From positions 72,610 to 136,609 of the forward strand of contig CAVXJO010000001.1 in assembly GCA_963762125.1 (NCBI GenBank): a stretch of DNA of 64,000 bases. The letters run 5' to 3'. This DNA comes from an uncultured Thermoleophilia bacterium. GTDB taxonomy: Bacteria > Actinomycetota > Thermoleophilia > UBA2241. The number at the start of each line of letters is the position of its first letter. Position 1 is the first letter of the stretch. The translations under genes were made by a program, and so were the position numbers. This document shows, piece by piece, positions 2,159-41,624 of this stretch. Under the pieces are notes generated by a model that saw nothing but the letters and a program-made list of their open reading frames with translations, had not been told where the DNA came from and searched no databases.

Positions 2159-2350
2159 CGTCGCCCACTCTCCCTCTCTCCACGACGGCAGGGCTCGTCC
2201 CGCCGTGTGTCAGGCGCTTGCTACCCGGGCTGCGGCTGCGGCAATCGTCGCGCGGCGCAGATATGGCGGCAGGATCGGAGCGCTGGAAGTGGCGCGGACG
2301 CAGCTGGGCGCCGAGCGCATGCTCCGCCTGCGCGCTGCAGGCGGGGCCGG

Positions 2351-4741
2351 TCAGCGGGCGGGCTGCTCGACGCGGAAGACGTGGTGGCGGTTGGCGCCGC
2401 GTTCACAGTCGAAGGCGAGGGTCGCGCGCGAAAGGTCCTTGACATCGAGGCCGCGGAGCTCGGCGTGGTCGAGACGGAAGTTCCGCAGGTTGGTCGCGAA
2501 GAGGAGCGTCCCGCCCGGGGCCAGCAGGCGCCGGACGGTGAGGCGGATGAGGTCGGCGTGGTCACGCTGGACGTCGAAGGTGGCGCGGCCCATGCGCTTG
2601 GAGTTGCTGAAGGTCGGTGGGTCGAGCCAGATGAGGTCGAACTGGCCGCCCGCCTCAGCGACCCAGCGCAGGCAGTCGGCCTGGACGAGGGTGTGCGGCG
2701 CGGAGGCCCCCGTGCCCGGTCCGCCCGGCGCCGAGGCTTCCGCCTTGCCGGGCCCCGGCGACCAGGTCTCGCTCGCGGCTGAGAACCCGTTGGCGCCGAG
2801 GTTGCTCGCGGCCCAGGTCAGGTAGGTGGCAGAGAGATCGACCGTGGTGGATGCCGGTGACCCTCCGGCGAGGGCGTTCACCGTCATCGTGCCGGTGTAG
2901 GCGAAGAGGTTGAGGAAGCGCCGGCCGCCGGCCAGCCGGCGGACCAGGCGGCGGGTGAGCCGCTGGTCGATGAAGAAGCCGGTGTCCAGGTAGGTGTTCA
3001 GGTCGACGAGATAGGAGAGGTCGTCCTCGCTCACCTCGAGGCGTCCGCCCGCGTCGCCGCGGCGCTCGTACTGCGCCGCGCCGCGCTGACGGCGGCGCTC
3101 CTTGAGCACCACGCGGTCGGGCGGGGTCCCGAGGACGGCGCCGATGACTTCGACCGCCTCGGCGAGACGGCGCTGGGCCTTGCCGGGATCGATCTCGGGT
3201 GGCGCCGCGTATTCCTGGACGTGCACCCACTCGCCGTACACATCGACGACCAGGTTGTACTCGGGCAGGTCGGCGTCGTAGAGGCGGTAGCAGGTGATGT
3301 CTTGGCGCTGCAGTCGCCGGGCCAGCCGGCGCTGGTTCTTGCGCAGCCGGTTGGCCAGGTACTCGGCGCCGCCGCCGAGCATGCTCCGCGGACCGACGAC
3401 CTGAGGTTCAGCCTGCGGTGTGCCGGGCGGCTGCTTATCGGCGACTGCGGTCGGCGGCTCGGTCGGCGTCGTCTTGCGGGAGGAAGAGCGCGCCTCGGCA
3501 CGCGCCGTGCGTGGCGCGGCTGCTCCAGTGGGGGTCGCGCCCGCCTCGAAGTAGGCGAGCACGCACTCCAAGGGGCCGTTGCGCAGGTCCGTCTCTCGTT
3601 TGGGCGCAAGGCCGACGGCTTTGAGCTGCCGGTGGTCGCCGGCGAGGACGACTGCGCTCCACCCCGGGAACGCGTCCCGGAGACGCTCGCCGAGCTGGCG
3701 GTAGACGGCCTCTGTGTCGGCGACCTCCAGGCGCTCGCCGTAGGGCGCGTTGGTGGCGAGCAGGCCGCGCTCCGCAGGCGCGGCGACCGACTCAAGCTGG
3801 GCGTGCTCGATCGTCACCAACCCGTGCAGGCCTGCCCGCTTGACGAAGTCGCGCGCGACCTTCACGGCGCGCTGGTCCCTGTCCGAGCCGCGGATGGCGA
3901 CGCCGGGTCGCGCGGCCGCGAGTCGTTTGATGCCGACGCCGCGCCGCTCCCGCGCCTCGAGCAGCAGCGCGTTCCAGAGGTCGGCGTCGTGCCGGCGCCA
4001 GTGGAGGAACCCGAACGCCGGCGCCGCCCCAGGCTTGAGTTCCGCCTCGGCGCGCAGCAGGCCGGGCGCGACGTCGGCCGCCATGAGCGCCGCCTCGATC
4101 GGCAGCGTGCCCGACCCACAGAGCGGGTCCAGCAGGCTCGCGCCGGCGGCGGCCTCGTGCGGCCAGGCCGCGTACAACAGGAGTCCGGCGGCGAGGTTCT
4201 CCTTGAGCGGCGCCTCGACCTGCACCTTGTCGGCGCGGTAGCCGCGCCGGTGCAGACTCTGCCCGCTGAGATCGATCGAGATGGCCACGCGCGTGCCGGC
4301 CAGGTGCGCGTTGACGCGCACGTCGGGCGCGCGCGCATCGACAGAGGGGCGCTTGCCGCCGGAGGTGGCGCGGAACTGGTCGACGATGGCGTCCTTGATG
4401 CGCACGGCGCCGAAGCGGGTGTCCCTGATCCTGTCGTTGACGCCGGTGAAGTCGACCGCCAGCGTGTCGTCCACAGCGAGGTGCCGGGACCAGTCAACCG
4501 CCTGCGCGGTCTTGTAGAGGTCGTCGCCGTCGCCGGCCGTCCCGTTCGCCACGGGAAGCAGGATCCGGCCCGCGAGCCGCGACCACAGGCAGGCGCGGTA
4601 GGCCGTCTCGAGCGAGCCCGAGAAGGAGACGCCGGCGCGCACCTGTTTGACGTGCGCCGCGCCCAGGCCGCGCAGTTCGCCGGCGAGCAAGGACTCGAGT
4701 CCGCGCGGGACGGTCGCGAAGAGGGAGAGGTCGGTCACCAC
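2351..4741 (-). CDS. rlmKL: bifunctional 23S rRNA (guanine2069-N7)/(guanine2445-N2) methyltransferase RlmKL
   Basis: 796 aa. N-terminal THUMP-like region followed by LLDPLCGSGTL (SAM site). C-terminal second Rossmann MTase with the DPPTFSNSK motif. A low-complexity Ala/Pro/Thr linker (~80 aa) separates the two halves. Confidence 0.75.
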   Translation of the reverse strand: MVTDLSLFATVPRGLESLLAGELRGLGAAHVKQVRAGVSFSGSLETAYRACLWSRLAGRILLPVANGTAGDGDDLYKTAQAVDWSRHLAVDDTLAVDFTGVNDRIRDTRFGAVRIKDAIVDQFRATSGGKRPSVDARAPDVRVNAHLAGTRVAISIDLSGQSLHRRGYRADKVQVEAPLKENLAAGLLLYAAWPHEAAAGASLLDPLCGSGTLPIEAALMAADVAPGLLRAEAELKPGAAPAFGFLHWRRHDADLWNALLLEARERRGVGIKRLAAARPGVAIRGSDRDQRAVKVARDFVKRAGLHGLVTIEHAQLESVAAPAERGLLATNAPYGERLEVADTEAVYRQLGERLRDAFPGWSAVVLAGDHRQLKAVGLAPKRETDLRNGPLECVLAYFEAGATPTGAAAPRTARAEARSSSRKTTPTEPPTAVADKQPPGTPQAEPQVVGPRSMLGGGAEYLANRLRKNQRRLARRLQRQDITCYRLYDADLPEYNLVVDVYGEWVHVQEYAAPPEIDPGKAQRRLAEAVEVIGAVLGTPPDRVVLKERRRQRGAAQYERRGDAGGRLEVSEDDLSYLVDLNTYLDTGFFIDQRLTRRLVRRLAGGRRFLNLFAYTGTMTVNALAGGSPASTTVDLSATYLTWAASNLGANGFSAASETWSPGPGKAEASAPGGPGTGASAPHTLVQADCLRWVAEAGGQFDLIWLDPPTFSNSKRMGRATFDVQRDHADLIRLTVRRLLAPGGTLLFATNLRNFRLDHAELRGLDVKDLSRATLAFDCERGANRHHVFRVEQPAR

Positions 4742-8417: not shown

Positions 8418-10835
8418 CTACTTGACGGTCCTGGTCGCCCAGGCGCTCACGGCGTTCGTGGAGCCGCCGCCGAAGCGCGCGCGGACGCCGGTGACGCCCG
8501 CGGCGGAGACGGTCGTCCTGGCCTTCCCCCCGGCGAGTGTGGCCGCGCCCGCGGCCACCCAGCGGCCGTGCACGCGGCGCTGGAACCTGATCTTCCCGTC
8601 GGCGTCCTTGGGCGAGACGCGAGCCGTGAGCACGAGCCGTCGGCCGCGGTGCGTGACCGCCAGCCGGGTCGCGGCGCGGACCTTGACGGTCAGCTGGTCG
8701 GCGCCCGGCAGCGTGTCGTCGGTCAGTGCGCCGACCTCGGCCGTGATGAGGACGTTGTGTCTGAAGCCCGGCAGCACGGCGGCGAACAGCGCCAGCCCGT
8801 CGCCGCCGTTGGCGGTCACGGTGAGCGTGGGCTTCGCCGGCTCCGGCTTGCCGGCCTCCCGGCAGTAGATCGCGACCGGCACCTCGTGAGTCGCGCGTCG
8901 CACGGAGCCGGTCAGGCGGATGGGCTCGCCCAAGTCGGCCTTGGTCCTGGCTCGCGCGGTCACCGTCGCCGTCTGCTTCTCCACGCCGCCGCTGAACACC
9001 CAGTCCCCGGAGATGATGGCCTCGGCCGCCGGCTCCGGTCCGTAGGAGTCTTCTTCATCCGACGGATCCGGGATGAAGGCGACGACGACGTCCCCGTTCG
9101 CGGGCAGGCCGTCGACGAGCGCCTTCGTGTCCGCCAGCGTCAGCGGGCCGCTCGCGGACCCGTCATCCTCGGAATCGCTGGAGTATGCGCTCCAGCTCGC
9201 GGCCGGCATCACGTCCAGGTAGCCGCTGAGGACGGTCCCCGCGGGGACGTCCAGCGTGGCGTGCAGTGTCTGCGGCTCACTCGAGCCGCTGTGATAGTAG
9301 GTCACGTCGACCTCGTTCGTCCCTGTGCGGATGGCGCGCGGGATCGTCGCGTCGCTGATCCCTGCGTAGCGGCGCGTGGACGCGAAATCGGCGGTCACGT
9401 CCACCGACTTCACGCGCACGTCGCGGACGCCGTAGGGGTCGTCCAGGACCTTACCCATGATGGTGGTCACGTCGCCGGCGGCTGCGTCTGCCAGACCCTG
9501 CCCGCTGTCGTCAGCGTTGTTGTCCCAGACGTTGTCGCGGGTGATCGTGTAGTCGCTCTTCCCGTCGCTCACGACGACCGTCGTGGTCGTGGTCGCGCTG
9601 CCCGCGAGCGGGTCGCTGTCGAGGGCGTGGTAGAGCCCGGCCGCGGCGGTGTACGTGGTGACGCCCGCATAGTCACCCCAAGGGTCGGCGATCTCCGGGT
9701 AGTACACGGTCGCGAACCACTGGCCGAGGTCGGTCACGTCGGCCACCGGCGCGCCGCCGTCCACGGACCCGTGCGTGGTCACCGGGAACGTGAGCATGGC
9801 GCCGCCGAGCCGCGCGACGACTCCCGCGGAGCGGTCCTGGACGGCGACGCCCTTGGCGTCGGCCGGCGTCATCATCTTGTAGGGCGTGTACGTGGACGGC
9901 CACACGGCGTCGACGGTGGCTCCGGTGAGCCTGCCCTCCACGGGCCCGAGCCCGAGGTCGAGACCCGAGTACCCGCCGAGGATCGGGTGGCCGAAGAGCA
10001 GCGCGGAGTCGCCGTCGACGTAGGTCACCGTGCCCAGGACGCTGAGCGCGTAGTGACCGGTGGAGAAGACGACCCCACAGGGCGACCCCGCCTCCAGTGC
10101 CGGAGTCGCGCCGGCACCGGCCGTCGCCTCGCCGGGGAGCACCGTCAGGCCGCCGCCCTCAAGCCTGGTCGCCAGCTTGCGGTAGGCCGTGCTTCCGCTC
10201 GAGAGTCCAGTGATGCGCGCTACGGCGAGCGGATGCATGACCACCGTGTCGGTGCCGGCCGTGGTCCCCGCCGTCCCGAGGATGAGTCTCTTGACGGGGC
10301 CGGCGGCCGTCGCCACCGGCCGGTCGAGCTTGACGGCGGCGGCCTGCGTGCCCTGCGCCGCCGCCGCCGCATACTGATCCTGCAACGACGTCATGTACTC
10401 TATGGGCGTGGCGAGACCGGTGCCGCGCAACGTGAACCAGTCGCCGTACGACACGGCGCCGACGATACGGTCAGTGCCGTCCACGTTCGCGTACACGGGG
10501 CTTCCGCTCATGCCGGCGGCGATGCCGCCGATGTCGGTGATCGCCGGGTCGGTCGATTCGAACATGATGAGCTTGCCCCAGTAGAAACCGTCCACGATCG
10601 CGAGGATCCGGACCGGGATGTTGGAGACCGTGGTGCCCGACATGCTCGTCTTCATGAAGCCGTCGACGCTGCCGTGGGCGGTGAGCTCGGCCTGCAGACC
10701 GTCGAGGCCGAGCGTCAATGGCGGCGTCGCAGAGGCCGGCGCGGCGACTGCGAGCAGAGCTCCGACGACCGCGATGAGCACAAGGCTCCACCACCTTCCG
10801 TGCCGCGCGCGCGAACCTGCAGAGTGTGTGCCCAT
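8418..10835 (-). CDS. secreted peptidase, S55 (SpoIVB-type) serine protease-like domain with long C-terminal beta-sandwich region
   Basis: Signal peptide WWSLVLIAVVGALLAVAAPASA. The GMSGSPVY motif resembles the SpoIVB/S55 catalytic serine motif. ~800 aa with Thr/Ser/Gly-rich beta-rich repeats. The family call is from memory and needs an HMM check. Confidence 0.5.
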   Translation of the reverse strand: MGTHSAGSRARHGRWWSLVLIAVVGALLAVAAPASATPPLTLGLDGLQAELTAHGSVDGFMKTSMSGTTVSNIPVRILAIVDGFYWGKLIMFESTDPAITDIGGIAAGMSGSPVYANVDGTDRIVGAVSYGDWFTLRGTGLATPIEYMTSLQDQYAAAAAQGTQAAAVKLDRPVATAAGPVKRLILGTAGTTAGTDTVVMHPLAVARITGLSSGSTAYRKLATRLEGGGLTVLPGEATAGAGATPALEAGSPCGVVFSTGHYALSVLGTVTYVDGDSALLFGHPILGGYSGLDLGLGPVEGRLTGATVDAVWPSTYTPYKMMTPADAKGVAVQDRSAGVVARLGGAMLTFPVTTHGSVDGGAPVADVTDLGQWFATVYYPEIADPWGDYAGVTTYTAAAGLYHALDSDPLAGSATTTTTVVVSDGKSDYTITRDNVWDNNADDSGQGLADAAAGDVTTIMGKVLDDPYGVRDVRVKSVDVTADFASTRRYAGISDATIPRAIRTGTNEVDVTYYHSGSSEPQTLHATLDVPAGTVLSGYLDVMPAASWSAYSSDSEDDGSASGPLTLADTKALVDGLPANGDVVVAFIPDPSDEEDSYGPEPAAEAIISGDWVFSGGVEKQTATVTARARTKADLGEPIRLTGSVRRATHEVPVAIYCREAGKPEPAKPTLTVTANGGDGLALFAAVLPGFRHNVLITAEVGALTDDTLPGADQLTVKVRAATRLAVTHRGRRLVLTARVSPKDADGKIRFQRRVHGRWVAAGAATLAGGKARTTVSAAGVTGVRARFGGGSTNAVSAWATRTVK

Positions 10836-19836: not shown

Positions 19837-19999
19837 CACACACCTCGTCACCGGAGGCGGTGACGCCATGGTACTCGATGGGCGCCTGACGCGAGGCGGA
19901 CGGCGCCCCCTTCTTCATCACGCGCCGTGCTCGCATCCCGAGCGACGCCGGTATGGCGTGCGGCGGCTTGACCGAGCCACGGCGCGTCGTCTAGCATCC

Positions 20000-20165
20000 G
20001 CGGCACTTGGAGGTGCCCGCGAGGGCCACCAGAGGGAAGCCGGTGCAAGTCCGGCGCGGACCCGCCGCTGTGACCGGGGACGAAGGCTGCGAGAAGCCAC
20101 TGCCAGCTCGCTGGCGGGAAGGTGCGGCCCGAGGACGATCCGGGAGCCAGAAGACCTGCCTCCAG
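20000..20165 (+). ncRNA. cobalamin (AdoCbl) riboswitch
   Basis: AGAGGGAAGCCGGTGCAAGTCCGGCGCGGACCCGCCGCTGTGACCGGGGACGAAGGC then GCCACTG (B12 box) and GGGAAGG...AGCCAGAAGACCTGCC. These match the Rfam RF00174 conserved core and B12 box. Confidence 0.8.
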
Positions 20166-20236
20166 AGAGTGTGCCGACGCGTCCCGCGTGGTGAACGGGA
20201 TGGCGGCGGCGCATGCTGTGGCCTCGAACACGGGGG

Positions 20237-20275
20237 GCCCGGGCCAGACGAAGTGTCGGCCCGGGCTTTGTCGTC
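20237..20275 (+). terminator. intrinsic terminator / riboswitch expression platform
   Basis: Stem gcccgggcc / ggcccgggc with a 12-nt loop, followed by TTTGTCGTCTTCGT. Lies between the aptamer and the permease start. Confidence 0.5.
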
Positions 20276-20295
20276 TTCGTGACCGGGAGGCAGGC

Positions 20296-21135
20296 GTGCG
20301 AGCAGGAGCGACAGCGGGCGGCCGAGGGCGCCGCTTCTCCGCAGGCCGGCTGCGCGCGCCGAACGGCACCTCGTCTCGCTCGTCGGCAGTTCCGACGGTG
20401 CTCGGCCTGCTGCTGGCGCTCACGGTCGGCGCCGAGCTGGTCGTGCGCGCCCTGCACGTCGCCCCCTACGTCTTCCCGCCGCCGTCAGCCGTGCTGGTGG
20501 AGCTGGCGGCGGAGCCCACGCTCTTCGTCCGCGCTGCACTGGTCACGATCTCCGAGGCCGTCGCCGGCTTCTTGGTGGGGGCGGCGGCCGCGTTCGCGTT
20601 CGCTGCCGCGGCGACGTACTCGCGCCGCCTCGACGAACTGCTCACCCCGCTGGTGGTCGCATCGCAGACGGTGCCGGTCATCGCCTTGGCTCCTCTGCTC
20701 GTGCTCTGGATGGGCTACGGCTCGCCGCCCAAGATCGTCGTCTGCGCACTGATCGCCTTCTTCCCCATGGCGGTCACGGCTCGCGAGGGACTCCGCGCTA
20801 CAGACCCGCAACTGCTGCTGCTCATGCGGTCCGTGGGCGCGAGCCGCCGGGTCATCTTCTGGCGTGTGCGCGTGCCCTTCGCGCTGCCGTATCTCGCCGC
20901 CGGCGCGAGGACCGGCATCACGCTCAGCCTCGTCGGCGCCGTCGTCGCCGAGTGGACCGGGGCCGACAGCGGTCTCGGCTACCTGGTGCTCTCCGCGAAC
21001 GCTCGCCTGGCGACCGCGCAGGCGTTCGCCGCCATCGTCGTCATCACCGCCATCGGTCTGCTCGCCTACGCCGCCGCCGTGCTGCTCGAGCGTCGGCTCT
21101 GCTGGTGGACCCCCGCTCAGAAAGGATCCTCGTGA
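20296..21135 (+). CDS. ABC transporter permease, NitT/TauT (nitrate/sulfonate/HMP) family
   Basis: Six TM segments and the EAA-like loop of the BPD_transp_1 family. GTG start preceded by a GGGAGG RBS. Upstream in-frame ORF sequence overlaps the riboswitch. Confidence 0.8.
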   Translation: MRAGATAGGRGRRFSAGRLRAPNGTSSRSSAVPTVLGLLLALTVGAELVVRALHVAPYVFPPPSAVLVELAAEPTLFVRAALVTISEAVAGFLVGAAAAFAFAAAATYSRRLDELLTPLVVASQTVPVIALAPLLVLWMGYGSPPKIVVCALIAFFPMAVTAREGLRATDPQLLLLMRSVGASRRVIFWRVRVPFALPYLAAGARTGITLSLVGAVVAEWTGADSGLGYLVLSANARLATAQAFAAIVVITAIGLLAYAAAVLLERRLCWWTPAQKGSS

Positions 21136-21140
21136 ACCCC

Positions 21141-22211
21141 ATGGCCCGACCCGGAGCGCGCGCGCTCCCATCCTCGCCTGCCGCCCGAAAGGCGCGACCG
21201 GCTCTCCTCGCGGCGCTGCTGGTGCTCGTCGCCGCCGCGGCGCTCTCCGGCTGCGGCGGCCGCGCCGATGCGGCGACGAGCGACCCCTCCGGCGCCGCGG
21301 CGCCCGACGTCTCCGAGGTGACGCTGATCATGGACTGGGTGCCCTGGGTCCTCGACATACCTCTCGACGTAGCCCAAGACAAGGGGTTCTACGCGGACCA
21401 CGGCCTGACGGTGAAGCAGACGCTGCCGGCCGGCGCGACGGACGTGGCCAAGTTCGTCTCCACCGGCAAGGCGCAGTTCGGCCTGTACTACGCGCCCGAC
21501 ACGCTGATGGGCGTGGCCGCGGGCGCTCCGCTGCTCTCGGTGGCCAGCCTCATGAGCCACGCGCCCGTCGGGATGGCGATGGCGCCGGGGGTGCACGCCC
21601 GGACCCCGGCGGACCTGGCGGGTACGACGGCCGGAGTGGTGATGATCCCCTCGACGCGCGCCTCGTTCGCGACCATGCTTGACGCCGGCGGCGTCGACCC
21701 TGCTGCCGTCAAGGTCGCCGATCCGGGCTTCGACCTGGTCGCGCCACTGCTCGCCGGCAGGTACGACTCGGTCGCGGTGACCGAGTTCGGCGAACTCGTC
21801 CAGGCCGATGCGACCGGCCAGCAGCTCGACTATCTCGACTTTCGCGACTGGGGCACGCCGGACTACGCGTTCCTCAACGTGCTGACCCAGAAGGGATTCG
21901 CCGCCGAACATCCGGCGACGGTCAAGGCTTTCGTGGCCGCCACGATGCAGGGTCTCGATTGGGCCGTGGCGCATCCCGACGAGGCGGTCGCCATCTACGT
22001 GGCCCGCCATCCCGAGCTCGAGCCCGGGCTGCTGCTGGCGCAGTGGCAGGCCGCGATCCCGTCGATGGCGACGGGGACGGGACACATATCTGGCTCCCAG
22101 GACGTCGCTGCGTGGGAGCGGCTGAACGAGTGGATGGTGACGACGGGTCAGCTCGAGAAGAGCGCCGACGTGACCGGCACGGTGAGCGACGACTACCTGC
22201 CGGCAGAATGA
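21141..22211 (+). CDS. ABC transporter substrate-binding lipoprotein, NMT1/THI5-like (ThiY/SsuA-type)
   Basis: Lipobox LSGC. Reading (LIMDWVPWVLDIPLDVAQDKGFYADHGL...) fits NMT1/THI5-type binding proteins. Stop overlaps the ATPase start (ATGA). Confidence 0.8.
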   Translation: MARPGARALPSSPAARKARPALLAALLVLVAAAALSGCGGRADAATSDPSGAAAPDVSEVTLIMDWVPWVLDIPLDVAQDKGFYADHGLTVKQTLPAGATDVAKFVSTGKAQFGLYYAPDTLMGVAAGAPLLSVASLMSHAPVGMAMAPGVHARTPADLAGTTAGVVMIPSTRASFATMLDAGGVDPAAVKVADPGFDLVAPLLAGRYDSVAVTEFGELVQADATGQQLDYLDFRDWGTPDYAFLNVLTQKGFAAEHPATVKAFVAATMQGLDWAVAHPDEAVAIYVARHPELEPGLLLAQWQAAIPSMATGTGHISGSQDVAAWERLNEWMVTTGQLEKSADVTGTVSDDYLPAE

Positions 22212-23080
22212 CCGCCGCGGCGCTCACGGTGACGGCGGTCTCGGCCGGCTACGGCAGCGGCGAAGACGCCTCAGGCGGAGTGCTGGCCGGCGTCGACTTC
22301 GAGGTGCTCGCCGGTGAGTGTCTCGCCGTCGTCGGCCGCAGCGGCTGCGGCAAGAGCACGCTCCTCAATGTCCTTGCCGGCGTGCATGCACCGGCGGCCG
22401 GGGGCGTCCGCGTGGGCGGCGAGGTCGTCGCGGGGGGCGACTTGCGGGGCACGGGCTCGCCCGGCTGCACGTCGGGTCACGCCGCGTATCTGTTCCAGCA
22501 GGACCTTCTGCTGCCGTGGAAGGGAGCTCTCGCGAACGCCGTGTTCGCGGCGCGCGTGGCGGCTGGACGCGCCGCCCGCCGCGATCGACGCGGGCTCGAG
22601 CGGCGCGCCGAAGCGTTGCTCCGCGAGTTCGGTCTTGGTGACAGCCTGGAGCTACTGCCGCGCGAATTGTCCGGAGGCATGCGTCAGCGCGTGGCCCTGG
22701 CCCGGACCGTGCTCATGGACCGTGGGGTGATCCTTCTCGACGAGCCGTTCGGAAGTCTCGACGCGGTCACCCGCGCTGAGATGCGTCTCTGGCTGCTGGA
22801 CGTGATGGCGGCGCACCCCGCGACCTGGGTGCTGGTCACCCATGACGTGGACGAGGCGGTGCTGCTCGGCGACCAGGTCGCCGTCTTGCGCGGCCGGCCG
22901 GCGCGGCTCGAGGGCCGGTCACCGGCCACGCTGAGCCGCGCCCGGCGCCGGCGGATCGCGGCCGTCGCCGCGGGGGAGCCGGCGGATGCCGCGGGGCACT
23001 CGCGCTCCGACCTGGAGGCTGCCGCTGCGGCCGCCGCCGGTCTGCGCCGCGCCTTGCTTGACGAGCGGCGGGCCTCGTGA
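22208..23080 (+). CDS. ABC transporter ATP-binding protein (NitT/TauT family)
   Basis: Walker A GRSGCGKST, signature LSGGMRQR, Walker B ILLDEPFGSLD, H-loop VTHD. Confidence 0.85.
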   Translation: MTAAALTVTAVSAGYGSGEDASGGVLAGVDFEVLAGECLAVVGRSGCGKSTLLNVLAGVHAPAAGGVRVGGEVVAGGDLRGTGSPGCTSGHAAYLFQQDLLLPWKGALANAVFAARVAAGRAARRDRRGLERRAEALLREFGLGDSLELLPRELSGGMRQRVALARTVLMDRGVILLDEPFGSLDAVTRAEMRLWLLDVMAAHPATWVLVTHDVDEAVLLGDQVAVLRGRPARLEGRSPATLSRARRRRIAAVAAGEPADAAGHSRSDLEAAAAAAAGLRRALLDERRAS

Positions 23081-23114: not shown

Positions 23115-23295
23115 CCTCGGCTGCGGCGGCTGTAGCCTTGCCGGGCATCTCTCAGCTGCTGGGAAGCCGGTGCAAGGCCGGCGCTGCCCCGCAACTGTAG
23201 GCGCCGACGAACGTCGCACGGAAGCCACTGCCCCGCGGGGTGGGAAGGCGCGGCAAGTAGGACGACGCGCAAGCCAGGAGACCGTGGCCGGGAGA
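23115..23295 (+). ncRNA. cobalamin riboswitch (second copy) preceding cobU
   Basis: CTGGGAAGCCGGTGCAAGGCCGGCGCTGCCCCGCAACTGTAGG then GAAGCCACTG and GGGAAGGCG...AAGCCAGGAGACC. The downstream GAGGGAGGG RBS is likely sequestered by the expression platform. Confidence 0.75.
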
Positions 23296-23328
23296 TCACT
23301 GCGACAACGCCTCGAGGGAGGGCCTGCG

Positions 23329-24075
23329 GTGGACACAGCAGACGACCAGTCCGGCCAGGGCCGGCTCATTCTCGTCACGGGCGGCGCCCGCAGCGGCAAG
23401 AGCACGTACGCGGAGCGGCTCGCGGCGCGGCTTGCCGAGCCGCGTGGCGGCCGGGTCACCTATATCGCCACGTCCGAGGCGCACGACGAGGAGATGGAGC
23501 AGCGCGTGAGCGCGCACCAGACTTCGCGGCCGGAGACGTGGACGACCGTCGAGTGCCCCATCGAGGCGCCGGCGGCTCTGCGCGCGGCCGCCGGCGCCGG
23601 ACCCGCGCGGTCGCCCGGCGCCCCTCCCGTCGTCCTGCTCGACTGCGTCACCCTCTGGGTGACCAATCTGCTCTTCAGCGGCGGCGCGTTCGGCGGCAGC
23701 GAGCCGCCGGAAGACGGCTACAACTACGACAAGGACCTGCTGCCGCCGGCCGAGGAGCGCGCCGCCGCGGAGCGAGTCACGGCCGCGGTCACCGACCTGC
23801 TCGCGGCCGTCGCCGAGACCGGCGTCACGCTCGTGGCCGTCACCAACGAGGTCGGTCTCGGCGTCGTCCCGGAGTACCCGCTCGCCCGCCTCTACCGCGA
23901 CCAGCTGGGCTGGGCCAACCAGCGCCTGGCCCGTGACGCCGACGGCCTCTACCTCCTCGTCTCCGGTTACGCGCTCGACGTCAAAGCGCTGGCTGCCGGC
24001 TCGCCTGCCGCTGTCGGCCCATCCCCCGCCCCGTCCATCGACGACCCTTCGTCACCGTCCAAGGAGCCCCAGTGA
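23329..24075 (+). CDS. cobU: bifunctional adenosylcobinamide kinase / adenosylcobinamide-phosphate guanylyltransferase
   Basis: P-loop LILVTGGARSGKSTYAE. ~248 aa. CobU/CobP family organisation. GTG start 6 nt after the GAGGGAGGG RBS. Confidence 0.8.
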   Translation: MDTADDQSGQGRLILVTGGARSGKSTYAERLAARLAEPRGGRVTYIATSEAHDEEMEQRVSAHQTSRPETWTTVECPIEAPAALRAAAGAGPARSPGAPPVVLLDCVTLWVTNLLFSGGAFGGSEPPEDGYNYDKDLLPPAEERAAAERVTAAVTDLLAAVAETGVTLVAVTNEVGLGVVPEYPLARLYRDQLGWANQRLARDADGLYLLVSGYALDVKALAAGSPAAVGPSPAPSIDDPSSPSKEPQ

Positions 24076-25157
24076 CCGACCTCCTCGACCGCACCCTCGC
24101 CGCCATCGGCCCGCTCGATGCCGACGCCATGCGCGCCGCCGAGGCGCGCCAGCTTCAGCTCACCAAACCACCCAAGGCGCTCGGGCGCCTCGAGACACTG
24201 TCCATCCAGCTCGCCGGCATCCAAGGCCGGGAACAGCCGGTCATCGCGGACAAGGCGATCGCGGTGATGGCGGCCGACCATGGCGTCACCGCGGAGGGCG
24301 TGAGCGCGTTCCCCGCCGAGGTGACGCCGGCGATGGTCTTCAACATGGCCGCCGGCGGCGCCGGCATCAACGTGATCGGCCGCCACGTCGGCGCGCGCGT
24401 CGTCGTCACCGACGTCGGCGTCGACGCCGACCTCAGCGCCGCCGAAGGCGTGCGCCAGAAGAAGATCCGCATGGGCACCGCCAACATGGCCCAGGGTCCG
24501 GCGATGACCCGTGAAGAGGCCGTGCGCGCCGTCGAGATCGGCATCGAACTGGTCGAGGAGGAGCTGGCCAACGGCCTCGACATCATCGCCACGGGCGAGG
24601 TCGGCATCGGCAACACGACGGCCGCGTCGGCCGTCATCGCCGCCCTCACCGGCGAGCCGGCGGCGAGGGTCACCGGCCGGGGCACGGGGATCACCAAGGA
24701 CGCGCTCGCCGGCAAAGTGGCGGTGATCGAGAAGGCGCTGGCGGTCAACTCGCCCGACGCCGCCGACCCGATCGACGTGCTCGCCAAAGTCGGCGGTCTC
24801 GACATCGCCGCCATGACCGGCGTGTTCCTCGGCGGCGCGGCGCACCGCATCCCGGTCGTCATGGACGGGTTCATCAGCGCCGCCGCGGCGCTCGCCGCCG
24901 TGCGCCTCTGCCACGAGTGCGTGGACTACATCCTGCCCAGCCACGTGAGCATCGAGGTCGGCCACCAGGTCGTGCTCGAGGAGCTCGACCTGGTGCCGCT
25001 CTTCGACCTCCAGATGCGCCTCGGCGAGGGCACCGGCGCGGCTCTCTCGATGAGCATCATCGAAGCCTCCGCGCGCGTCCTCAGCGAGATGGCGACCTTC
25101 GAGAGCGCCGGCGTCGCCGGGGACCCCAGTGAGGCCGATTCCGAGCTGACGCGATAA
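24072..25157 (+). CDS. cobT: nicotinate-nucleotide--dimethylbenzimidazole phosphoribosyltransferase
   Basis: Characteristic CobT sequence (LTKPPKALGRLE..., ADHGV, GEVGIGNTT, MDGFISAAAAL). Start codon overlaps the cobU stop. Confidence 0.85.
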   Translation: MTDLLDRTLAAIGPLDADAMRAAEARQLQLTKPPKALGRLETLSIQLAGIQGREQPVIADKAIAVMAADHGVTAEGVSAFPAEVTPAMVFNMAAGGAGINVIGRHVGARVVVTDVGVDADLSAAEGVRQKKIRMGTANMAQGPAMTREEAVRAVEIGIELVEEELANGLDIIATGEVGIGNTTAASAVIAALTGEPAARVTGRGTGITKDALAGKVAVIEKALAVNSPDAADPIDVLAKVGGLDIAAMTGVFLGGAAHRIPVVMDGFISAAAALAAVRLCHECVDYILPSHVSIEVGHQVVLEELDLVPLFDLQMRLGEGTGAALSMSIIEASARVLSEMATFESAGVAGDPSEADSELTR

Positions 25158-25206: not shown

Positions 25207-26067
25207 ATGACGGACACCGACCAGACACAGGTGCAGGGACCAGACGCGACCCCGCCGCGGGACGGCTCGACCGGCGCCGGCTCCATCGGCCGCCGCCTGA
25301 CGCTCGCCGTGACGTTCCTGACCGGCGTCCCGCTCGAGGTGGAGGGCGATGTGAGCCCCAGCGACCTGTGGGGGAGCATGGGCTGGTACCCGCTCGTCGG
25401 GCTGGCCATGGGCGTCGTCGCGTGGGCGGTCTACGCGGGGCTGATCTGGTTCCTCCCGGGCTTGGTCGCGGCGACGCTGGTCGTCATCCTGCTCGAGTTG
25501 CTCACGCGGGGCTTGCATCTCGATGGCCTGATGGACACGGCCGACGGGATCCTGAGCGGCGCGCCGCGCGAGCGGGCGCTCGAGATCATGAAGGACCACA
25601 ACGTCGGCGCGATGGGCGTCGCGGCGGCGGTCCTTGTCCTGGTGCTCAAGATCGCGGCCCTGGGTGCGCTCGCGCGTGCAGACGCGGCCGCTCCGCTGCT
25701 CGCCGGCTGGTGCGCGGCGCGCACGCTTCCGGCGCTCAACGTCTACTGGTGGCCGTACGCCCGCCCGGTCGGGACCGGAGAGGCGTTCACCCGCGAGCAC
25801 ACTCCGGGGCCTCTGCAGCTGGCCGGCGGCCTGCTGCTGGCCGGCGTCGTCATCGCCGGCCTCGCCGGCCTCTGGATCGGCGCCGCCGGCTCGTGGTACG
25901 CCGGCCTCCTGACCGCCGTGGTCGCGATGGCTGTGGCGCTGGGCGTGCAGGCTGTCGTGGCGAAGCGCCTCGGCGGCCTCACCGGGGACGTCTACGGTAT
26001 GGGCATCGAGCTTGCCGAAGCGGCAGCGCTGGTCGTCGGCTGCGCGATCGTGGGGCTGGCGACGTGA
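25207..26067 (+). CDS. cobS: adenosylcobinamide-GDP ribazoletransferase (cobalamin 5'-phosphate synthase)
   Basis: Multi-TM protein with the DGLMDTADG motif. Confidence 0.85.
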   Translation: MTDTDQTQVQGPDATPPRDGSTGAGSIGRRLTLAVTFLTGVPLEVEGDVSPSDLWGSMGWYPLVGLAMGVVAWAVYAGLIWFLPGLVAATLVVILLELLTRGLHLDGLMDTADGILSGAPRERALEIMKDHNVGAMGVAAAVLVLVLKIAALGALARADAAAPLLAGWCAARTLPALNVYWWPYARPVGTGEAFTREHTPGPLQLAGGLLLAGVVIAGLAGLWIGAAGSWYAGLLTAVVAMAVALGVQAVVAKRLGGLTGDVYGMGIELAEAAALVVGCAIVGLAT

Positions 26068-26948
26068 AGCTATACCTCGTCCGTCACGGCCAGTCTACGG
26101 GTAACATCGGCGGCACGCTGATGGGGCAGAGCGACCATCCGCTGACGCCGCTCGGTGAGAGACAGGCGCGGGCCGCGGCCGGACGCCTGGCGCCGTTCGG
26201 GCCCATGCCCGTGTACTCCAGCGACTTGCCGCGGGCCCGGGCGACGGCAGAGTACGTCGTCGGCGCCTGGACGGCGGCGGGCGGCGTGGTGGCGGCCGCC
26301 GGCAGGCCTGCCCGTCTGACGCTGGATCCGCGCCTTCGCGAGATCGCCCTGGGTGACTACGAAGGCCGCCCCTGGCAGGAGTTCGAGGCAGACACCGCGC
26401 TGACGGCTGCGTTCGCCGAAGATCCGTACCGTACCGCGCTACCGAACGGCGAGTCGCTGGAGCATCTGGAGGCCCGGGTCCATGCTGCCGTCCTCGATAT
26501 CCTCGTGCCGTTCGGCGTCGACGACACGGGCGCGTACTGCGGCAACGCGGTGAGCCAGGGCGACGCCAGCGCCGGCGATCGCAATGGCTCGGACGTCGCT
26601 GCCATGAAGGCCGGGGCGGCGGCGGCCGCCGTTGACGGCGCGGCGACCGCTGGGGCAGGCGAGACAGGCCTGCCGGAGACCATGGACGCGAGCGTCGTCG
26701 CCACAGGTCTCGTGCCGGTGGAGGACGGCGGGTGCGCTTGTCTGGTCGCTCACGACGGCCCCATCCGGGCGATCCTCAACCACTATCTGGGCGTGCCGCC
26801 GGAGAAGTGGTGGACCCTGTCCACCACCCACGGCGGCGTTTCCCTGCTCGAGTTCGCCGGCGGCTGCGTCACGGTCCGCTTCGTGAATGGGACGGGTCAT
26901 CTCGCCGGGCTCGAGCCGGACAAGTACGTGCCGTCCGACGACGACTGA
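26064..26948 (+). CDS. cobC: histidine phosphatase family protein, probable alpha-ribazole phosphatase (CobC) with ~90-aa low-complexity insertion
   Basis: LYLVRHGQS (RHG catalytic motif) ... LAHDGPIRAIL (second His). GTGA overlap with cobS. An Ala/Gly/Asp-rich insert sits between the two conserved halves. Confidence 0.65.
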   Translation: MKLYLVRHGQSTGNIGGTLMGQSDHPLTPLGERQARAAAGRLAPFGPMPVYSSDLPRARATAEYVVGAWTAAGGVVAAAGRPARLTLDPRLREIALGDYEGRPWQEFEADTALTAAFAEDPYRTALPNGESLEHLEARVHAAVLDILVPFGVDDTGAYCGNAVSQGDASAGDRNGSDVAAMKAGAAAAAVDGAATAGAGETGLPETMDASVVATGLVPVEDGGCACLVAHDGPIRAILNHYLGVPPEKWWTLSTTHGGVSLLEFAGGCVTVRFVNGTGHLAGLEPDKYVPSDDD

Positions 26949-26971: not shown

Positions 26972-27922
26972 GTGATCTTCGTCCCTCATGACTGGCGTCT
27001 CGCACTGGCCACGGTGCTGCTCGCGGGATTGATCGACGTGACGCTGGGCGAGCCACCGAACGCGCTGCATCCCGTCGTGTGGATGGGCCGGCTGATCGGC
27101 GCGCTGGAGCGGCGCCGGCCGCGGGGCCGACCCGGCGCCGAGTTCGCCTACGGTGTCCTCATCGTGGTCGTGACGGCTGGAGCGGCGTTCGCCGCTGGCC
27201 TGCTGCTCACCCTCGTGCTGGACCGCCTGCCCTTGTGGGGCGCGCTGCTCATCGGCGCCTGCGCGCTCAAGACGACCTTCTCGCTGCGGGGGCTGGTGCG
27301 CGCCGGCCGCGACGTCCAGCGCGCGCTGGCCTCCGACACCGCCGCGGCGCGCGCCTCTCTCGCTGCCCTGGTCAGTCGCTCGCCGGACCTCGATCCGCCG
27401 CTCATCGTCTCGGCGACCATCGAATCGCTGGCCGAGAACCTCACGGACAGCGTCGTCTCGCCGCTGCTCGCCTACGCCCTCTTCGGGCTGCCCGGCGCCT
27501 TGGCCTACAGGGCCGTCAACACGATGGACGCGATGCTGGGCTACCGCGACGAGCGCGAGTACGTGGGCAAGGCTGCGGCGCGCAGCGACGACGCGGCGAA
27601 CTGGCTGCCGACGCGCATCACCGGCCTGCTGCTCGTAGCCGTCTCGGCGCTCAAGGGGACCGCCGGCCGCGCCTGGTGGGCGTTCCGCACGCAGCACCAG
27701 CCCGAGTACGGGCCCAACAAGACCCTGGCCATCGCTACCATGGCCGGCAGCCTGGGTGTGCAGCTGCAGAAGCCCGGGGCGTACGCGCTGGGAACGGCGG
27801 ACCGTGCGCTGACGAGCCAGGTCATCGACGACGCCGTGTGGCGCGTGTGGGCGGCCGGCGGCGCGACGGTCGCGCTGGCCGCCGGCCTCGCCGCTCTGCT
27901 GACCTGGGCGGTGTGGGGATGA
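26972..27922 (+). CDS. cbiB: adenosylcobinamide-phosphate synthase (CbiB/CobD membrane protein)
   Basis: TM protein with HPVVWMGRLIGALE near the N-terminus and the conserved ESLAENLTDSVVSPL region. Confidence 0.8.
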   Translation: MIFVPHDWRLALATVLLAGLIDVTLGEPPNALHPVVWMGRLIGALERRRPRGRPGAEFAYGVLIVVVTAGAAFAAGLLLTLVLDRLPLWGALLIGACALKTTFSLRGLVRAGRDVQRALASDTAAARASLAALVSRSPDLDPPLIVSATIESLAENLTDSVVSPLLAYALFGLPGALAYRAVNTMDAMLGYRDEREYVGKAAARSDDAANWLPTRITGLLLVAVSALKGTAGRAWWAFRTQHQPEYGPNKTLAIATMAGSLGVQLQKPGAYALGTADRALTSQVIDDAVWRVWAAGGATVALAAGLAALLTWAVWG

Positions 27923-29078
27923 CCGCGGGATCGCCGCACGGCGCCGCGCCGGCGGCGGAGTCACCTGCGCCGGCACGCCTGCGCCGGGTCGCGGCGTCCG
28001 TGCACGGCGCGGTCGACCCTTCGGCGCTGCGCGCCGAAGGCATCGATCCGGCCGACCATCGTCGACTTCAGCTCCAACCAGTCGCCGCTCGGAGCGGCGC
28101 CGGCGGTCGCCGCCGCCGTCGCCGGCGCGGTCGTCGACGCGTACCCGGACCCGCGTCGCGGCGGAGCTCACCGCGGCGCTTGCTCTTCGCCATGGCGTGA
28201 CGCCGGCGCACGTGGTGTGCGGCAACGGCAGCACCGAGCTCATCCGGCTGCTGGCTCAGCTGGCGCTACGGCCGGGCGACGTCGCCCTGGCGCTCGCGCC
28301 CGTCTTCGGCGAGTGTGAAGTAGCGACCGCTCTCGCTCGAGCGCGCCTCGAGCGCGTCCCGCTCGCGTACGAAGAGGATGAGGCGGGCTTCTTCTGCGAC
28401 GAGCCCGCCCTCCGCGAGGCGCTCCGCCAGCAGAGCCCCCGGCTCTGCTGGCTCTGCTCGCCGAACAACCCGACCGGGGCGGCGCTGCCCGCGGCGCTGG
28501 CCGCCGCCCTCGCCGCCGACCACCCGGCCACGCTCTTCGTCCTCGACGAGGCCTACTGCGACCTGCTGCCGGACCCACAGTGGAATCGGGCGCAGCTGCC
28601 GCCCGACCTCATCGTCCTACGCTCGATGACCAAGTACTGGGGTCTCGCCGGTCTGCGTCTCGGCTATGCCATCGCCGACCCCGCCGCGGCCGCGGCGCTA
28701 CGCGCCGCGACCCCTCCGTGGAACGTCAATGCCTGTGCTCAGGCGGCCGGCCTGGCGGCGCTCGCCGATGGCCAGCACCATGACCGGGCGGTCGCGCTGC
28801 TCGTCGCCGAGCGCGACCGCCTCGTCGTCGGCCTGTGCTCGCTCGGCTGGATCAGCGAGCCGACCAGCGCCGGCTTCTTCCTCATCCGCGCCGGCGACGC
28901 CGGGGCCGTCCGCGGCGCACTGCTCGCCCGCGGCTGCCTCGTGCGCGACTGCACCTCTTTCGGCCTGCCCTCCCACGTCCGCGTCAGCCCGCGTCACCCC
29001 GGCCAGAACGACTTGCTCCTCGAGGCGTTCTCGTCGCTCGCGCCGCCCCCCGCGGCGGCTGCCGAGGCCCCGCGATGA
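27919..29078 (+). pseudogene. cobD: L-threonine-O-3-phosphate decarboxylase (CobD, class I/II aminotransferase fold) interrupted by two closely spaced +1 frameshifts
   Basis: Three frame segments: MTAGSPHG...LRAEGIDPAD (frame A, from the ATGA overlap with cbiB); IVDFSSNQSPLGAAPAVAAAVAGAVVDAYPDPR (frame B); AELTAALALRHGVTPAHVVCGNGSTELI...SMTKYWGLAGLRLGY (frame C, ORF 28197..29078, contains the PLP-Lys region). Each junction is repaired by deleting a single C, at ~28055 and ~28135. Confidence 0.65.
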
Positions 29079-30619
29079 CCGTCGCTCGCGGCCGCGTCAT
29101 CATGCTGCAGGGCACGGCCTCGCATGCCGGCAAGACCGTGCTGGCCGCGGCGCTGTGCCGCATCTACGCGCGCCGCGGCCTGCGCGTGGCGCCGTTCAAG
29201 GCGCAGAACCTGGCGCTCAACTCGTACGTGACGGAGGACGGCGGCGAGATGGGGCGCGCCCAGGTGTATCAGGCGCGCGCGGCCGGCCTCGAGCCGCAGG
29301 TGGACATGAACCCGGTGCTGCTCAAGCCCAGCTCCGACGCGACCAGCCAGGTCGTCGTCATGGGCAGGCCGGTCGGGCACATGACGGTGCCCGAGTATCA
29401 GGCCTATCAGGCGGAAGTCTGGCCCACCGTCACGGCAGCCTTCGAACGCCTGCGGACGTCACGCGACCTCATCGTCCTCGAGGGCGCCGGCAGCTCGGCG
29501 GAGGTGAACCTCCGGGGGCGGGACATCGTCAACATGCGCATGGCGCTGCACGCCCGATCACCGGTCCTTCTGGTCGGGGACATCGACCGCGGAGGTGTCT
29601 TCGCCAGCCTCCTCGGCCATGTGGAGCTGTTCACGCCCGAGGAGCGCGGGCTGGTGGCGGGGTTCGTCATCAACAAGATGCGCGGCGATGCGAGCCAGCT
29701 GGACTCCGGCATCGAGATCCTCGCCGAGCGCACCGGGGTCCCGACGCTCGGCGTCGTGCCCATGCTCGAGGGATGGAGCGGCGACGAAGAGGACTCGGTC
29801 GCGCTCGACGGCTGGCAGCGCCGGGAGAAGCAGGACGCGCCGCTGCGGATCGCCGTCGTCCGCCTGCCGTACCTCAGCAACTCGACCGACACGGACGCGC
29901 TGGCCGCGGAGCCGGATGTGGACGTGCGCTTCGTGAGCTCGCCCGACGAGCTCGCGGGGGCTGCGGCGATCGTGGTGCCCGGCACCAAGAGCACGATCGC
30001 CGACCTCGCCTGGCTGCGGCAACGCGGCCTTGACGACGCGGTGAAGGCGGCGGCCGCGGCCGGGACGCCGGTCGTCGGCATCTGCGGCGGCTACCAGATG
30101 CTCGGCCGCCGCATCGTCGATCCCGGGCACATCGAGTCCGCCGCCCTCGCCGTCGACGGCCTCGGCCTGCTCGACGTGGAGACGACCTTCGCCGCAGGCA
30201 AGCGGACGGTCCGCACCGAGGGTGAGCTGATCGGCCGGGACGCCGGACCGCTCGCCCCCGGCGCGCGCGTCTCCAGCGGCGGCCTTCTCGGCTCGCCCGG
30301 GACGCAGGTGCGCGGCTACGAGATCCACATGGGACGCACCGAGCTCGGGCCCGGCGCCGCGCCGCTGCTGCGACTGCACGGCGCCGGTGAGAGCGAGCAC
30401 CTCGACGGCGCCGTCGCCGGCGCCGTCTGTGGCACCTACGTGCACGGGCTCTTCGACCATGCGGATCTGCGCACCGCGTTCCTGAACGGCTTGCGCGCGG
30501 CGCGCGGCCTGGCTCCCCGCCCGGCCTCGGTCCCGCAGGGCGACGACATCGACCGCCTCGCAGACCACGTCGAGGCGCACCTCGACACAGCCGCGCTCGA
30601 CGCCGTCATCTGGGCCTGA
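29075..30619 (+). CDS. cobQ: cobyric acid synthase
   Basis: N-terminal CobQ/DTB-synthetase-like ATPase (IMLQGTASHAGKT) and C-terminal GATase1 domain (GICGGYQMLG, HGLF). ATGA overlap with cobD. Confidence 0.9.
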   Translation: MTVARGRVIMLQGTASHAGKTVLAAALCRIYARRGLRVAPFKAQNLALNSYVTEDGGEMGRAQVYQARAAGLEPQVDMNPVLLKPSSDATSQVVVMGRPVGHMTVPEYQAYQAEVWPTVTAAFERLRTSRDLIVLEGAGSSAEVNLRGRDIVNMRMALHARSPVLLVGDIDRGGVFASLLGHVELFTPEERGLVAGFVINKMRGDASQLDSGIEILAERTGVPTLGVVPMLEGWSGDEEDSVALDGWQRREKQDAPLRIAVVRLPYLSNSTDTDALAAEPDVDVRFVSSPDELAGAAAIVVPGTKSTIADLAWLRQRGLDDAVKAAAAAGTPVVGICGGYQMLGRRIVDPGHIESAALAVDGLGLLDVETTFAAGKRTVRTEGELIGRDAGPLAPGARVSSGGLLGSPGTQVRGYEIHMGRTELGPGAAPLLRLHGAGESEHLDGAVAGAVCGTYVHGLFDHADLRTAFLNGLRAARGLAPRPASVPQGDDIDRLADHVEAHLDTAALDAVIWA

Positions 30620-41171: not shown

Positions 41172-41624
41172 GTGACCGACCCGCAGCCGGCGCACGACAT
41201 CGAGGCCGTCTTCCATCAGAAGGGCATCCCGTTCACCCGGCAGCGCCGGCTGATCTGGGACTTCTTCGCCGGCGCCGACCGCGCCACCACCATCACGGAG
41301 GCGGCGGACGCTCTGCGCAGCGAGGGCGTCGGTCAGGCCACCGTGTACCGCACCGTGCAGCTTCTGAGCGACCTTGGTCTGCTCGCGCGGGTGCAGGATG
41401 GACGCGGCGAGATCTGCTTCATCGCGCCGCCGATCGGACACAGTCACCCGCTCATCTGCGGCGTCTGCCGCAAGGTGGTCCGCTTCGACGGCGATGGTGA
41501 CGTCGCGGATCTCGAGGCGCGGCTCGCCGAGGCCACGGGCTTCACGATCTACGGCCACCACCTCGAGGTGTACGGCATCTGCCCCTCCTGTCGCGCCGCG
41601 AAGGAGGGCGACCATGGCGAGTGA
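41172..41624 (+). CDS. Fur family transcriptional regulator (Fur/Zur/PerR-like)
   Basis: N-terminal winged helix (RLIWDFF..., ATVYRTVQLLSDLGLL). Metal-binding HSHPLICGVC and C-terminal CPSC (CxxC...CxxC structural Zn site). Confidence 0.85.
   Translation: MTDPQPAHDIEAVFHQKGIPFTRQRRLIWDFFAGADRATTITEAADALRSEGVGQATVYRTVQLLSDLGLLARVQDGRGEICFIAPPIGHSHPLICGVCRKVVRFDGDGDVADLEARLAEATGFTIYGHHLEVYGICPSCRAAKEGDHGE

Follow-up and report, generated by a model that had tools for sequence, protein, structure and literature searches.

The 64,000-nucleotide (64-kb) stretch analysed here comes from an uncultured Thermoleophilia bacterium (GenBank assembly GCA_963762125.1, contig CAVXJO010000001.1, positions 72,610 to 136,609; the whole stretch is called the window below, and its G+C content is ~72%). 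It carries, downstream of a cobalamin riboswitch at 19995-20177, an operon for a three-component ATP-binding cassette (ABC) importer of the NitT/TauT type that resembles ThiXYZ. The operon probably encodes a B12-repressed salvage importer of free benzimidazole bases, which would feed CobT (nicotinate-nucleotide:dimethylbenzimidazole phosphoribosyltransferase). The context points to 5,6-dimethylbenzimidazole (DMB), 5-hydroxybenzimidazole or a close analogue as the most likely substrate. A lower-ligand substrate is proposed because lower-ligand metabolism is the only feature common to all contexts in which the importer is found: CobT, the user of the free base, is the partner that recurs most constantly beside it, and the alternative setting of the importer is a benzimidazole-synthesis operon. 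The first-pass annotation, made from the sequence alone, had proposed a B12-related substrate that is neither a corrinoid nor cobalt, likely a lower-ligand base. A second riboswitch followed by cobU-cobT-cobS-cobC, the presence of cobT in most related loci and the occurrence of the importer in bza operons all support that proposal, with the substrate itself read from context.

The importer heads a nucleotide-loop assembly cluster, since riboswitch 2 and cobU-cobT-cobS-cobC lie directly 3' of it. Riboswitch 2, a cobalamin aptamer at 23127-23300 (plus strand; RF00174, 82 bits, E 1.2e-18), begins 46 nt past the stop codon of the ATPase gene. It is followed, on the same strand, by cobU (adenosylcobinamide kinase/guanylyltransferase; 23329-24075; NF004469 above cut-off), cobT (24072-25157; 440 bits on TIGR03160, whose cut-off is 319), cobS (25207-26067; family scans) and a gene for a cobC-like histidine phosphatase (26064-26948), the best match of which is alpha-ribazole phosphatase (TIGR03162, 116.8 bits, under the cut-off of 162.9). 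The GTG start codon of cobU is located 29 nt past the aptamer, with a Shine-Dalgarno sequence GGGAGGG in that interval, and riboswitch 2 more likely acts on translation because its aptamer ends so close to the cobU start. The importer and the cobU-cobT-cobS-cobC cluster are gated separately by two riboswitches in series, and read-through from the importer operon into the cobU operon seems possible because no terminator is seen between them. Neither bluB nor any of the bza genes, bzaF included, is found in the 64 kb that the window covers.

The same association is found in relatives. A profile of 18 binding proteins (A1) recovered 25 loci in species-level genomes, all of them metagenome-assembled genomes (MAGs), and 41 metagenome loci, which probably duplicate the MAG loci in part, so that the counts are not fully independent. 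The binding proteins of these loci are 57-86% identical to that of the window. Neighbourhoods were mapped by tblastn, with family scans on selected loci. Downstream of the importer, cobT is present in 18 of the 22 informative genome loci (the window counted), reached either through riboswitch 2 and cobU or directly past the ATPase gene. In arrangement A (the window, L001, L002, L008, L013, L021, L025, L038, L056, L061 and others) riboswitch 1 and the importer are followed by riboswitch 2 and cobU-cobT-cobS-cobC-cbiB. L012 has this gene order with the second riboswitch not detected, and five loci (L003, L004, L009, L020 and L062; arrangement A') have an unrelated insert ahead of riboswitch 2. 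In arrangement B (L005, L014, L017, L024, L058, and L010, whose sequence is cut off downstream) the riboswitch is followed by a gene for a 435-residue ThiC-family radical S-adenosylmethionine (SAM) protein and then by the genes for permease, binding protein, ATPase and CobT. Arrangement C (L015, L019, L051, L054, L057 and L059) consists of the riboswitch, the importer and a bza-type cobT, with or without bzaC and bzaD; no bzaF lies ahead of the importer in L051, L054, L057 and L059, and bzaC/bzaD are present where the sequence extends. The remaining arrangement, D, has no cob gene within the flank (L007, L016, L022 and L023). One of its members, L016, has a divergent second cobalamin riboswitch (4365-4501, minus strand) that drives a Peripla_BP_2/FecCD/ABC_tran operon of the BtuFCD type (807-4221, minus strand), placed back to back with the riboswitch of the ThiY-like importer and forming with it a compact B12-regulated uptake island.

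Where the sequence of arrangement B extends further 3', an O-methyltransferase gene (dimerisation and catalytic domains) with DUF2284 is found and then B12-binding radical SAM genes, identified by family scans in L014 and by similarity in the other loci. In L014 the RF00174 riboswitch is present, and the encoded proteins match PF01964, TIGR03160 and Dimerisation + Methyltransf_2 + DUF2284; the first B12-binding radical SAM gene has BzaD as its best NCBIfam match (374 bits, under the cut-off of 450). Judged by these matches, arrangement B appears to be an importer embedded in a bzaF-[ABC]-cobT-bzaC-bzaD-bzaE operon, between bzaF and cobT. Among the loci with sufficient sequence 3' of the importer, at least six have it 5' of, or within, a bza benzimidazole-synthesis operon. 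The product of the ThiC-family gene itself (3448-4755 in L005, 3642-4988 in L014, and relatives) scores 580 bits against the ThiC cut-off of 410 and 532 bits against the BzaB cut-off of 700, and ThiC is its only relative in the PDB; the operon context of cobT and bzaC-, bzaD- and bzaE-like genes suggests that it is a 5-hydroxybenzimidazole synthase. Automatic annotation probably names it ThiC, because it passes the NCBIfam ThiC cut-offs.

The link between riboswitch and importer is conserved throughout the clade. RF00174 lies upstream of the operon, on the same strand, in all 24 genome loci having upstream DNA, and upstream in 19 of the 20 metagenome loci scanned, which are 19 of the 19 intact ones. 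In L035, the sole locus without an upstream riboswitch, the permease gene contains a breakpoint. At ~4212 its homology to L038 begins within the permease, with unrelated sequence upstream, and the locus is either a chimeric assembly or the result of a deletion that took away the riboswitch together with the 5' portion of the permease gene. No thiamin pyrophosphate (TPP) riboswitch (RF00059) occurs in the 45 loci scanned (the window and 44 related ones), and besides RF00174 the Rfam scan of the related loci gave only two tRNAs and no further riboswitch class. As a control, three loci of the sister group closest to the binding protein (31-36% identity) were scanned. The gene order there is ATPase-permease-binding protein, the neighbours are catabolic (creatinase/M24 peptidase, AstE/AspA-type, short-chain dehydrogenase/reductase and GntR genes), and Rfam gave no hit, and hence no riboswitch, in any of the three loci. 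The arrangement of riboswitch and operon exceeds chance, and the importers under it are a tight, isolated clade defined by B12 regulation.

Scanned in full against Rfam with cmscan, the window contains exactly two cobalamin riboswitch aptamers and no other RNA family. Riboswitch 1 (19995-20177, plus strand) matches the full RF00174 model (positions 1-189) with 102.6 bits (E 1.5e-24) against a gathering score of 31.5. Its B12 box, GCCACTG (GCCACUG in the RNA), occupies 20096-20102, and AGCCAGAAGACCTGCC lies at 20145-20160. The canonical cobalamin aptamer with a GCCACTG box, which had been read from the letters alone, is significant by this check and stands. Just 5' of the P1 helix of the aptamer is a promoter-like, sigma-70-like site, TTGACC-18 nt-TAGCAT (19968-19997, plus strand), a consensus match only, for which the one match compares with 0.1 expected in shuffled sequences.

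The interval between aptamer and terminator contains a platform hairpin (20169-20218, plus strand), which appears in the fold and is kept in sequence in the leaders of the window type. It is followed, according to the fold and the comparison of leaders, by a small hairpin, an intrinsic-terminator-like GC stem and a U-rich tail (together 20222-20280, plus strand). The stem, GGCCCGGGCC...GGCCCGGGCU, occupies 20236-20267 and then UUGUCGUCUU follows, the U-rich tail extending over 20268-20280; the GC stem and U-rich tract noticed in the first pass are thus located. The platform folds better than shuffled sequences (z ~-3), with 0-2 of 200 shuffles equalling it. A custom search for a hairpin plus U-run, combined with leader comparison, was used in place of a simple terminator scan, and it finds a terminator-like hairpin with a U-rich tail in all 25 leaders (the window and 24 others), starting 18-48 nt past the aptamer. 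These terminators fall into two unrelated sequence designs. The window type has GGCCCGGGCC...GGCCCGGGCU and then UUUUGUCGUUUU, with a U-run that is often better than the window's own, and the second type has AAAGUCUCCGGCCU...AGGCUGGGGGCUUU and then UUCUUUU. The window-type stem is nearly invariant, with compensatory changes in L012 and L013 only, and covariation statistics would therefore be uninformative; the main argument that the terminator is probably functional is the persistence of two different designs at one position. With a terminator-like hairpin in all leaders and a fold at z ~-3, the platform would be able to gate the permease gene. We infer that riboswitch 1 is an OFF switch acting through transcription termination, the direction of switching and the exact switching helices being predicted ones.

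The leader of the window also has 9 nt of perfect complementarity between the 3' strand of P1, CCUGCCUCC (20155-20163), and the Shine-Dalgarno region of the permease gene, GGAGGCAGG (20286-20294), and the centroid fold pairs the two. Such anti-Shine-Dalgarno pairing was rejected as a conserved mechanism, and the terminator preferred, because the complementarity is limited to the closest relatives of the window and is lost in L006, L007, L012 and others. It is probably a by-product of a P1 that contains GGAGG/CCUCC. In the lineage of the window it could add translational control.

The three genes under riboswitch 1 have the composition of the NitT/TauT family (TC 3.A.1.17), with an SsuC/TauC-type BPD_transp_1 permease, an NMT1/SsuA-type class II binding protein and an ATPase in one operon. 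The permease, in a ThiX-like position (20296-21135, plus strand), has a GTG start codon with the Shine-Dalgarno sequence GGGAGG upstream of it (20285-20290), and it matches BPD_transp_1 at 3.9e-31; its best NCBIfam matches are SaoP, SsuC and TauC, all under the equivalog cut-offs. The gene for the ThiY-like substrate-binding lipoprotein of the NMT1/THI5 family (21141-22211, plus strand; ATG start; PF09084 NMT1, 1.2e-48) encodes a signal peptide with the lipobox LSGC, and Cys38 is invariant in the alignment of the clade. The ATPase gene (22208-23080, plus strand; ATG start; ABC_tran) overlaps the stop codon of the binding-protein gene in the sequence ATGA. The three genes are translationally coupled, and the BPD_transp_1, PF09084 and ABC_tran matches bear out the earlier description of a coupled permease, NMT1/THI5-like lipoprotein and ATPase.

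Among solved structures, the top relative of the binding protein is ThiY, the formylaminopyrimidine-binding component of ThiXYZ (3IX1; profile E 1.4e-42, 27% identity), followed by the thiamin-bound binding protein 4NMY and then by the hydroxymethylpyrimidine phosphate synthases THI5/THI13, with TauA and SsuA far weaker. An AlphaFold model (pLDDT 77) compared with the PDB ranks the relatives as the sequence search does, giving template modelling (TM) scores, normalised to the target, of 0.86-0.87 for ThiY and 4NMY and of 0.70-0.74 for TauA and SsuA. The fold family is one that takes small planar N-heterocycles. A glutamate which we take to contact the pyrimidine ring in ThiY aligns with Glu218, invariant in the binding proteins of the clade, and Glu218 is compatible with the imidazole N-H of a benzimidazole. 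The clade is isolated: in a set of 1.84 billion 50%-identity representatives it is reduced to a single full-length protein, which scores 589 bits, and no further full-length relative exceeds 206 bits. All its members come from uncultured Actinomycetota/Thermoleophilia. The first-pass annotation had named robust clustering with characterised sulfonate or thiamine binders as part of what would count against its proposal; instead, the protein stands apart from SsuA and TauA, has only 27% identity to ThiY and is accompanied by no TPP riboswitch. A sulfonate or taurine importer was rejected on the scores (SsuA_fam 51 bits against a cut-off of 163.5, TauA 26.5 against 490, SsuC 94 against 347) and, likewise, on the fold ranking. 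Source databases label the relatives 'putative hydroxymethylpyrimidine transport system substrate-binding protein', a label that the evidence suggests is wrong. The annotation 'NMT1/THI5-like' is itself unreliable (PMC4418817, PMC7373994).

In the proposed mechanism, scarcity of cobamide would leave riboswitch 1 unliganded and RNA polymerase would read through the leader. The lipoprotein would then bind the base outside the cell, and the permease and ATPase would carry it inward. CobT, encoded behind riboswitch 2, would convert the base and nicotinate mononucleotide (NaMN) to alpha-ribazole phosphate, and CobS and CobC would attach the alpha-ribazole moiety to the corrinoid. When cobamide is ample, it would bind the aptamer, the terminator at 20236-20280 would form and transcription would halt before the permease gene. 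Precursor salvage fits this scheme because regulation that is OFF at abundant cobamide is what such systems would have. By analogy, the regulation would parallel that of thiC and thiXYZ under TPP and of riboflavin synthesis and RibXY under flavin mononucleotide (FMN).

Several points weigh against the import of benzimidazole bases under such a switch. Benzimidazoles are small and fairly hydrophobic and, to our knowledge, are usually expected to pass through membranes on their own, so that it is not evident why they would require ATP-driven import. An importer inside a complete bza operon would duplicate synthesis, yet biosynthesis and salvage are often co-regulated. In four genome loci (L007, L016, L022 and L023) no cobT lies within the flank, and the alignment of Glu218 would also fit a pyrimidine-like ligand. 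As for the switch, the U-tract of the window terminator is weak, and a simple terminator scan of the window leader makes no call because that tract is interrupted.

Other substrates have to be weighed against the free base. A riboside form, alpha-ribazole or a benzimidazole riboside, imported in functional analogy to CblT, would fit the same B12 riboswitch and the same nucleotide-loop neighbourhood. The pockets of the ThiY family can hold thiamin-sized molecules, as the thiamin-bound 4NMY demonstrates, and ribosides are intermediates of the anaerobic benzimidazole pathway, in which BzaC acts after CobT. However, salvage of alpha-ribazole needs the kinase CblS, whereas the genes between riboswitch and cobT are all accounted for and none of them is a kinase, and CobT, the most constant partner, uses the free base; riboside import is unlikely. 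An equally low probability is assigned to some other small precursor or by-product of the nucleotide-loop or bza pathway (aminoimidazole riboside, nicotinate or aminopropanol) or to an unrelated heterocycle. Importers of the NitT/TauT type are very versatile, with sulfonates, nitrate, riboflavin, pyrroloquinoline quinone and purine-related compounds among their substrates, but no such candidate explains both the cobU-cobT-cobS-cobC and the bzaF...cobT-bzaC-D-E contexts. Salvage of nicotinate and of purines is normally controlled by other regulators, and import of aminoimidazole riboside would leave the loci without bzaF unexplained.

It is more doubtful still that the operon encodes a true ThiXYZ that imports hydroxymethylpyrimidine (HMP) or formylaminopyrimidine (FAMP) and is only incidentally controlled by B12, with the adjacent ThiC-family gene of the relatives a real ThiC. 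ThiY is indeed the best solved homologue, the databases name the relatives hydroxymethylpyrimidine transport proteins, the ThiC-family protein lies over the NCBIfam ThiC cut-offs and under the BzaB cut-off, and the glutamate aligned to the ring-binding residue of ThiY is invariant. Yet RF00059 is found in 0 of 45 loci, RF00174 being the only riboswitch, the neighbours are cob and bza genes rather than thiamin genes, and the binding protein belongs to an isolated clade with no more than 27% identity to ThiY. Moreover, the operon that contains the ThiC-like gene also encodes CobT, a BzaC-type methyltransferase and BzaD/E-type B12 radical SAM enzymes, in agreement with the bza composition in the literature. 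We know of no physiological reason why B12 should repress pyrimidine salvage. The least probable of these substrates, and a very improbable one, is a corrinoid (cobinamide or cobalamin) or cobalt, even though such transporters are the ones that B12 riboswitches most often control (PMC3766115). The binding protein lies outside the BtuF/Peripla_BP_2 class and the known cobalt-transporter families, the three importer proteins contain neither a Peripla_BP_2 nor a FecCD domain (Pfam), and a ThiY-type cleft takes small molecules. In these organisms corrinoid uptake appears as a separate function because the BtuFCD-type system of L016 has its own B12 riboswitch, and the window has a separate Peripla_BP_2/FecCD/ABC_tran system at 42425-45719.

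A B12-repressed importer of free benzimidazoles has partial counterparts among known systems. ThiXYZ, the HMP/FAMP importer, belongs to the same transporter family (ThiY, 27% identity, TM 0.86), presumably has the same gene order of permease-binding protein-ATPase and is likewise a salvage system that a riboswitch controls and that takes up a heterocyclic component of a vitamin; the corresponding synthesis enzymes, ThiC for thiamin and the ThiC-like BzaF here, are paralogous. The present importer differs from it in having a cobalamin instead of a TPP riboswitch, cobT, cobU and bza instead of thiamin genes as neighbours, and a binding protein in a separate, isolated clade. CblT is a single membrane protein and not a binding-protein-dependent ABC system, is not homologous to the importer and carries a riboside that needs CblS. 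Like the importer it is a member of the B12 regulon and feeds nucleotide-loop assembly, whereas here the system is a three-component ABC importer with CobT as partner and no kinase-like gene between riboswitch and cobT. With the kinase CblS, CblT (Firmicutes, alpha-ribazole) is the only lower-ligand salvage transporter named in the literature searched (PMC6461909, PMC8123684). RibXY(Z) of Chloroflexi and Actinobacteria also combines a NitT/TauT-type permease and binding protein under a vitamin riboswitch, and its import of riboflavin was predicted from the FMN riboswitch and later confirmed by complementation (PMC4418817). Importers of the NitT/TauT type have come under the control of FMN, TPP and other riboswitches, with substrates that correspond to the riboswitch (PMC4418817). 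The riboswitch class and the substrate of RibXY(Z) are different, and riboflavin carries the dimethylbenzene group that gives rise to DMB in the aerobic route. A survey of riboswitch regulons names transporters of B12, of precursors and of cobalt in broad terms (PMC3766115). BtuFCD, likewise of the ABC class and repressed through a cobalamin riboswitch, differs in being a type II importer that has a Peripla_BP_2 binding protein and a FecCD permease and carries large cargo; such a system is present apart from the ThiY-like one in L016 and probably in the window. The bza operon for anaerobic benzimidazole synthesis was reportedly described by Hazra et al. in 2015 as comprising bzaA/B or bzaF, cobT, bzaC, bzaD and bzaE. 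The composition used here also follows PMC6461909. Relatives of the importer lie within an operon of this composition under a cobalamin riboswitch, whereas published bza operons have no described embedded ABC importer in the literature searched and the window itself has no bza genes.

Searches of the literature for a DMB or benzimidazole transporter, for bzaF with a transporter and for ThiY with a cobalamin riboswitch gave nothing relevant. The transporter family and the riboswitch are known; their combination and the predicted specificity are new, in that neither was found described in the literature searched. The chances are about even that the operon represents the first high-affinity importer dedicated to free benzimidazole lower-ligand bases, derived from a ThiXYZ-like ancestor in parallel to the recruitment of ThiC to BzaF. 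If so, B12 lower-ligand metabolism would have acquired copies of the thiamin-pyrimidine synthase as well as of the transporter that salvages this pyrimidine, and uncultured soil Actinomycetota would compete actively for environmental DMB and 5-hydroxybenzimidazole. Free benzimidazoles of the DMB type pass between microbes and set the cobamide of a community ("guided biosynthesis", remodelling). The importer is a testable candidate, its binding protein being soluble, and would fill a gap in models of cobamide cross-feeding in soil. Two systematic mis-annotations are flagged as well, that of the binding proteins as hydroxymethylpyrimidine transporters and that of the adjacent ThiC-like gene as ThiC.

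Downstream of the cobC-like gene the window continues, on the plus strand and according to family scans, with cbiB (26990-27922), a cobD-type aminotransferase gene (threonine-phosphate decarboxylase-like; ~27919-29078) that is apparently frameshifted, and cobQ (29075-30619). At ~27919-28200 the cobD-type gene is readable only with two frame switches, through MTAGSPHG...GIDPAD, then IVDFSSNQSPLG... and then ...GVTPAHVVCGNGSTELIRLL, and either assembly indels or a pseudogene would account for this; related MAG loci show similarly split genes by tblastn, which is consistent with assembly indel errors. The Peripla_BP_2/FecCD/ABC_tran system at 42425-45719 (plus strand; family scans), of the BtuFCD or siderophore type, could be the corrinoid or iron-chelate importer of the organism. 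Genes for a Fur-family regulator and a Diphthami_syn_2 protein precede it in the region 41172-45719 (plus strand), where no riboswitch reaches the gathering score. An open reading frame for 766 residues at 8418-10718 (minus strand) has a strong coding signal and no Pfam match at E <= 0.001.

Several relatives have, between importer and riboswitch 2, a gene for a protein of ~800 residues with Peptidase_C11 (clostripain-like) and BNR/Ycf48-like repeats, the link of which to B12 is not obvious; it is located at 8154-10610 in L004, 7992-10409 in L009, 4508-6964 in L020 and 8052-10451 in L007. The insert of L003 (5089-7365) encodes instead a Zn-dependent alcohol dehydrogenase and a Glycos_transf_3 protein (anthranilate phosphoribosyltransferase/nucleoside phosphorylase family). 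A link of the latter to base activation is conceivable, because this family acts on ribosyl transfer to N-heterocycles.

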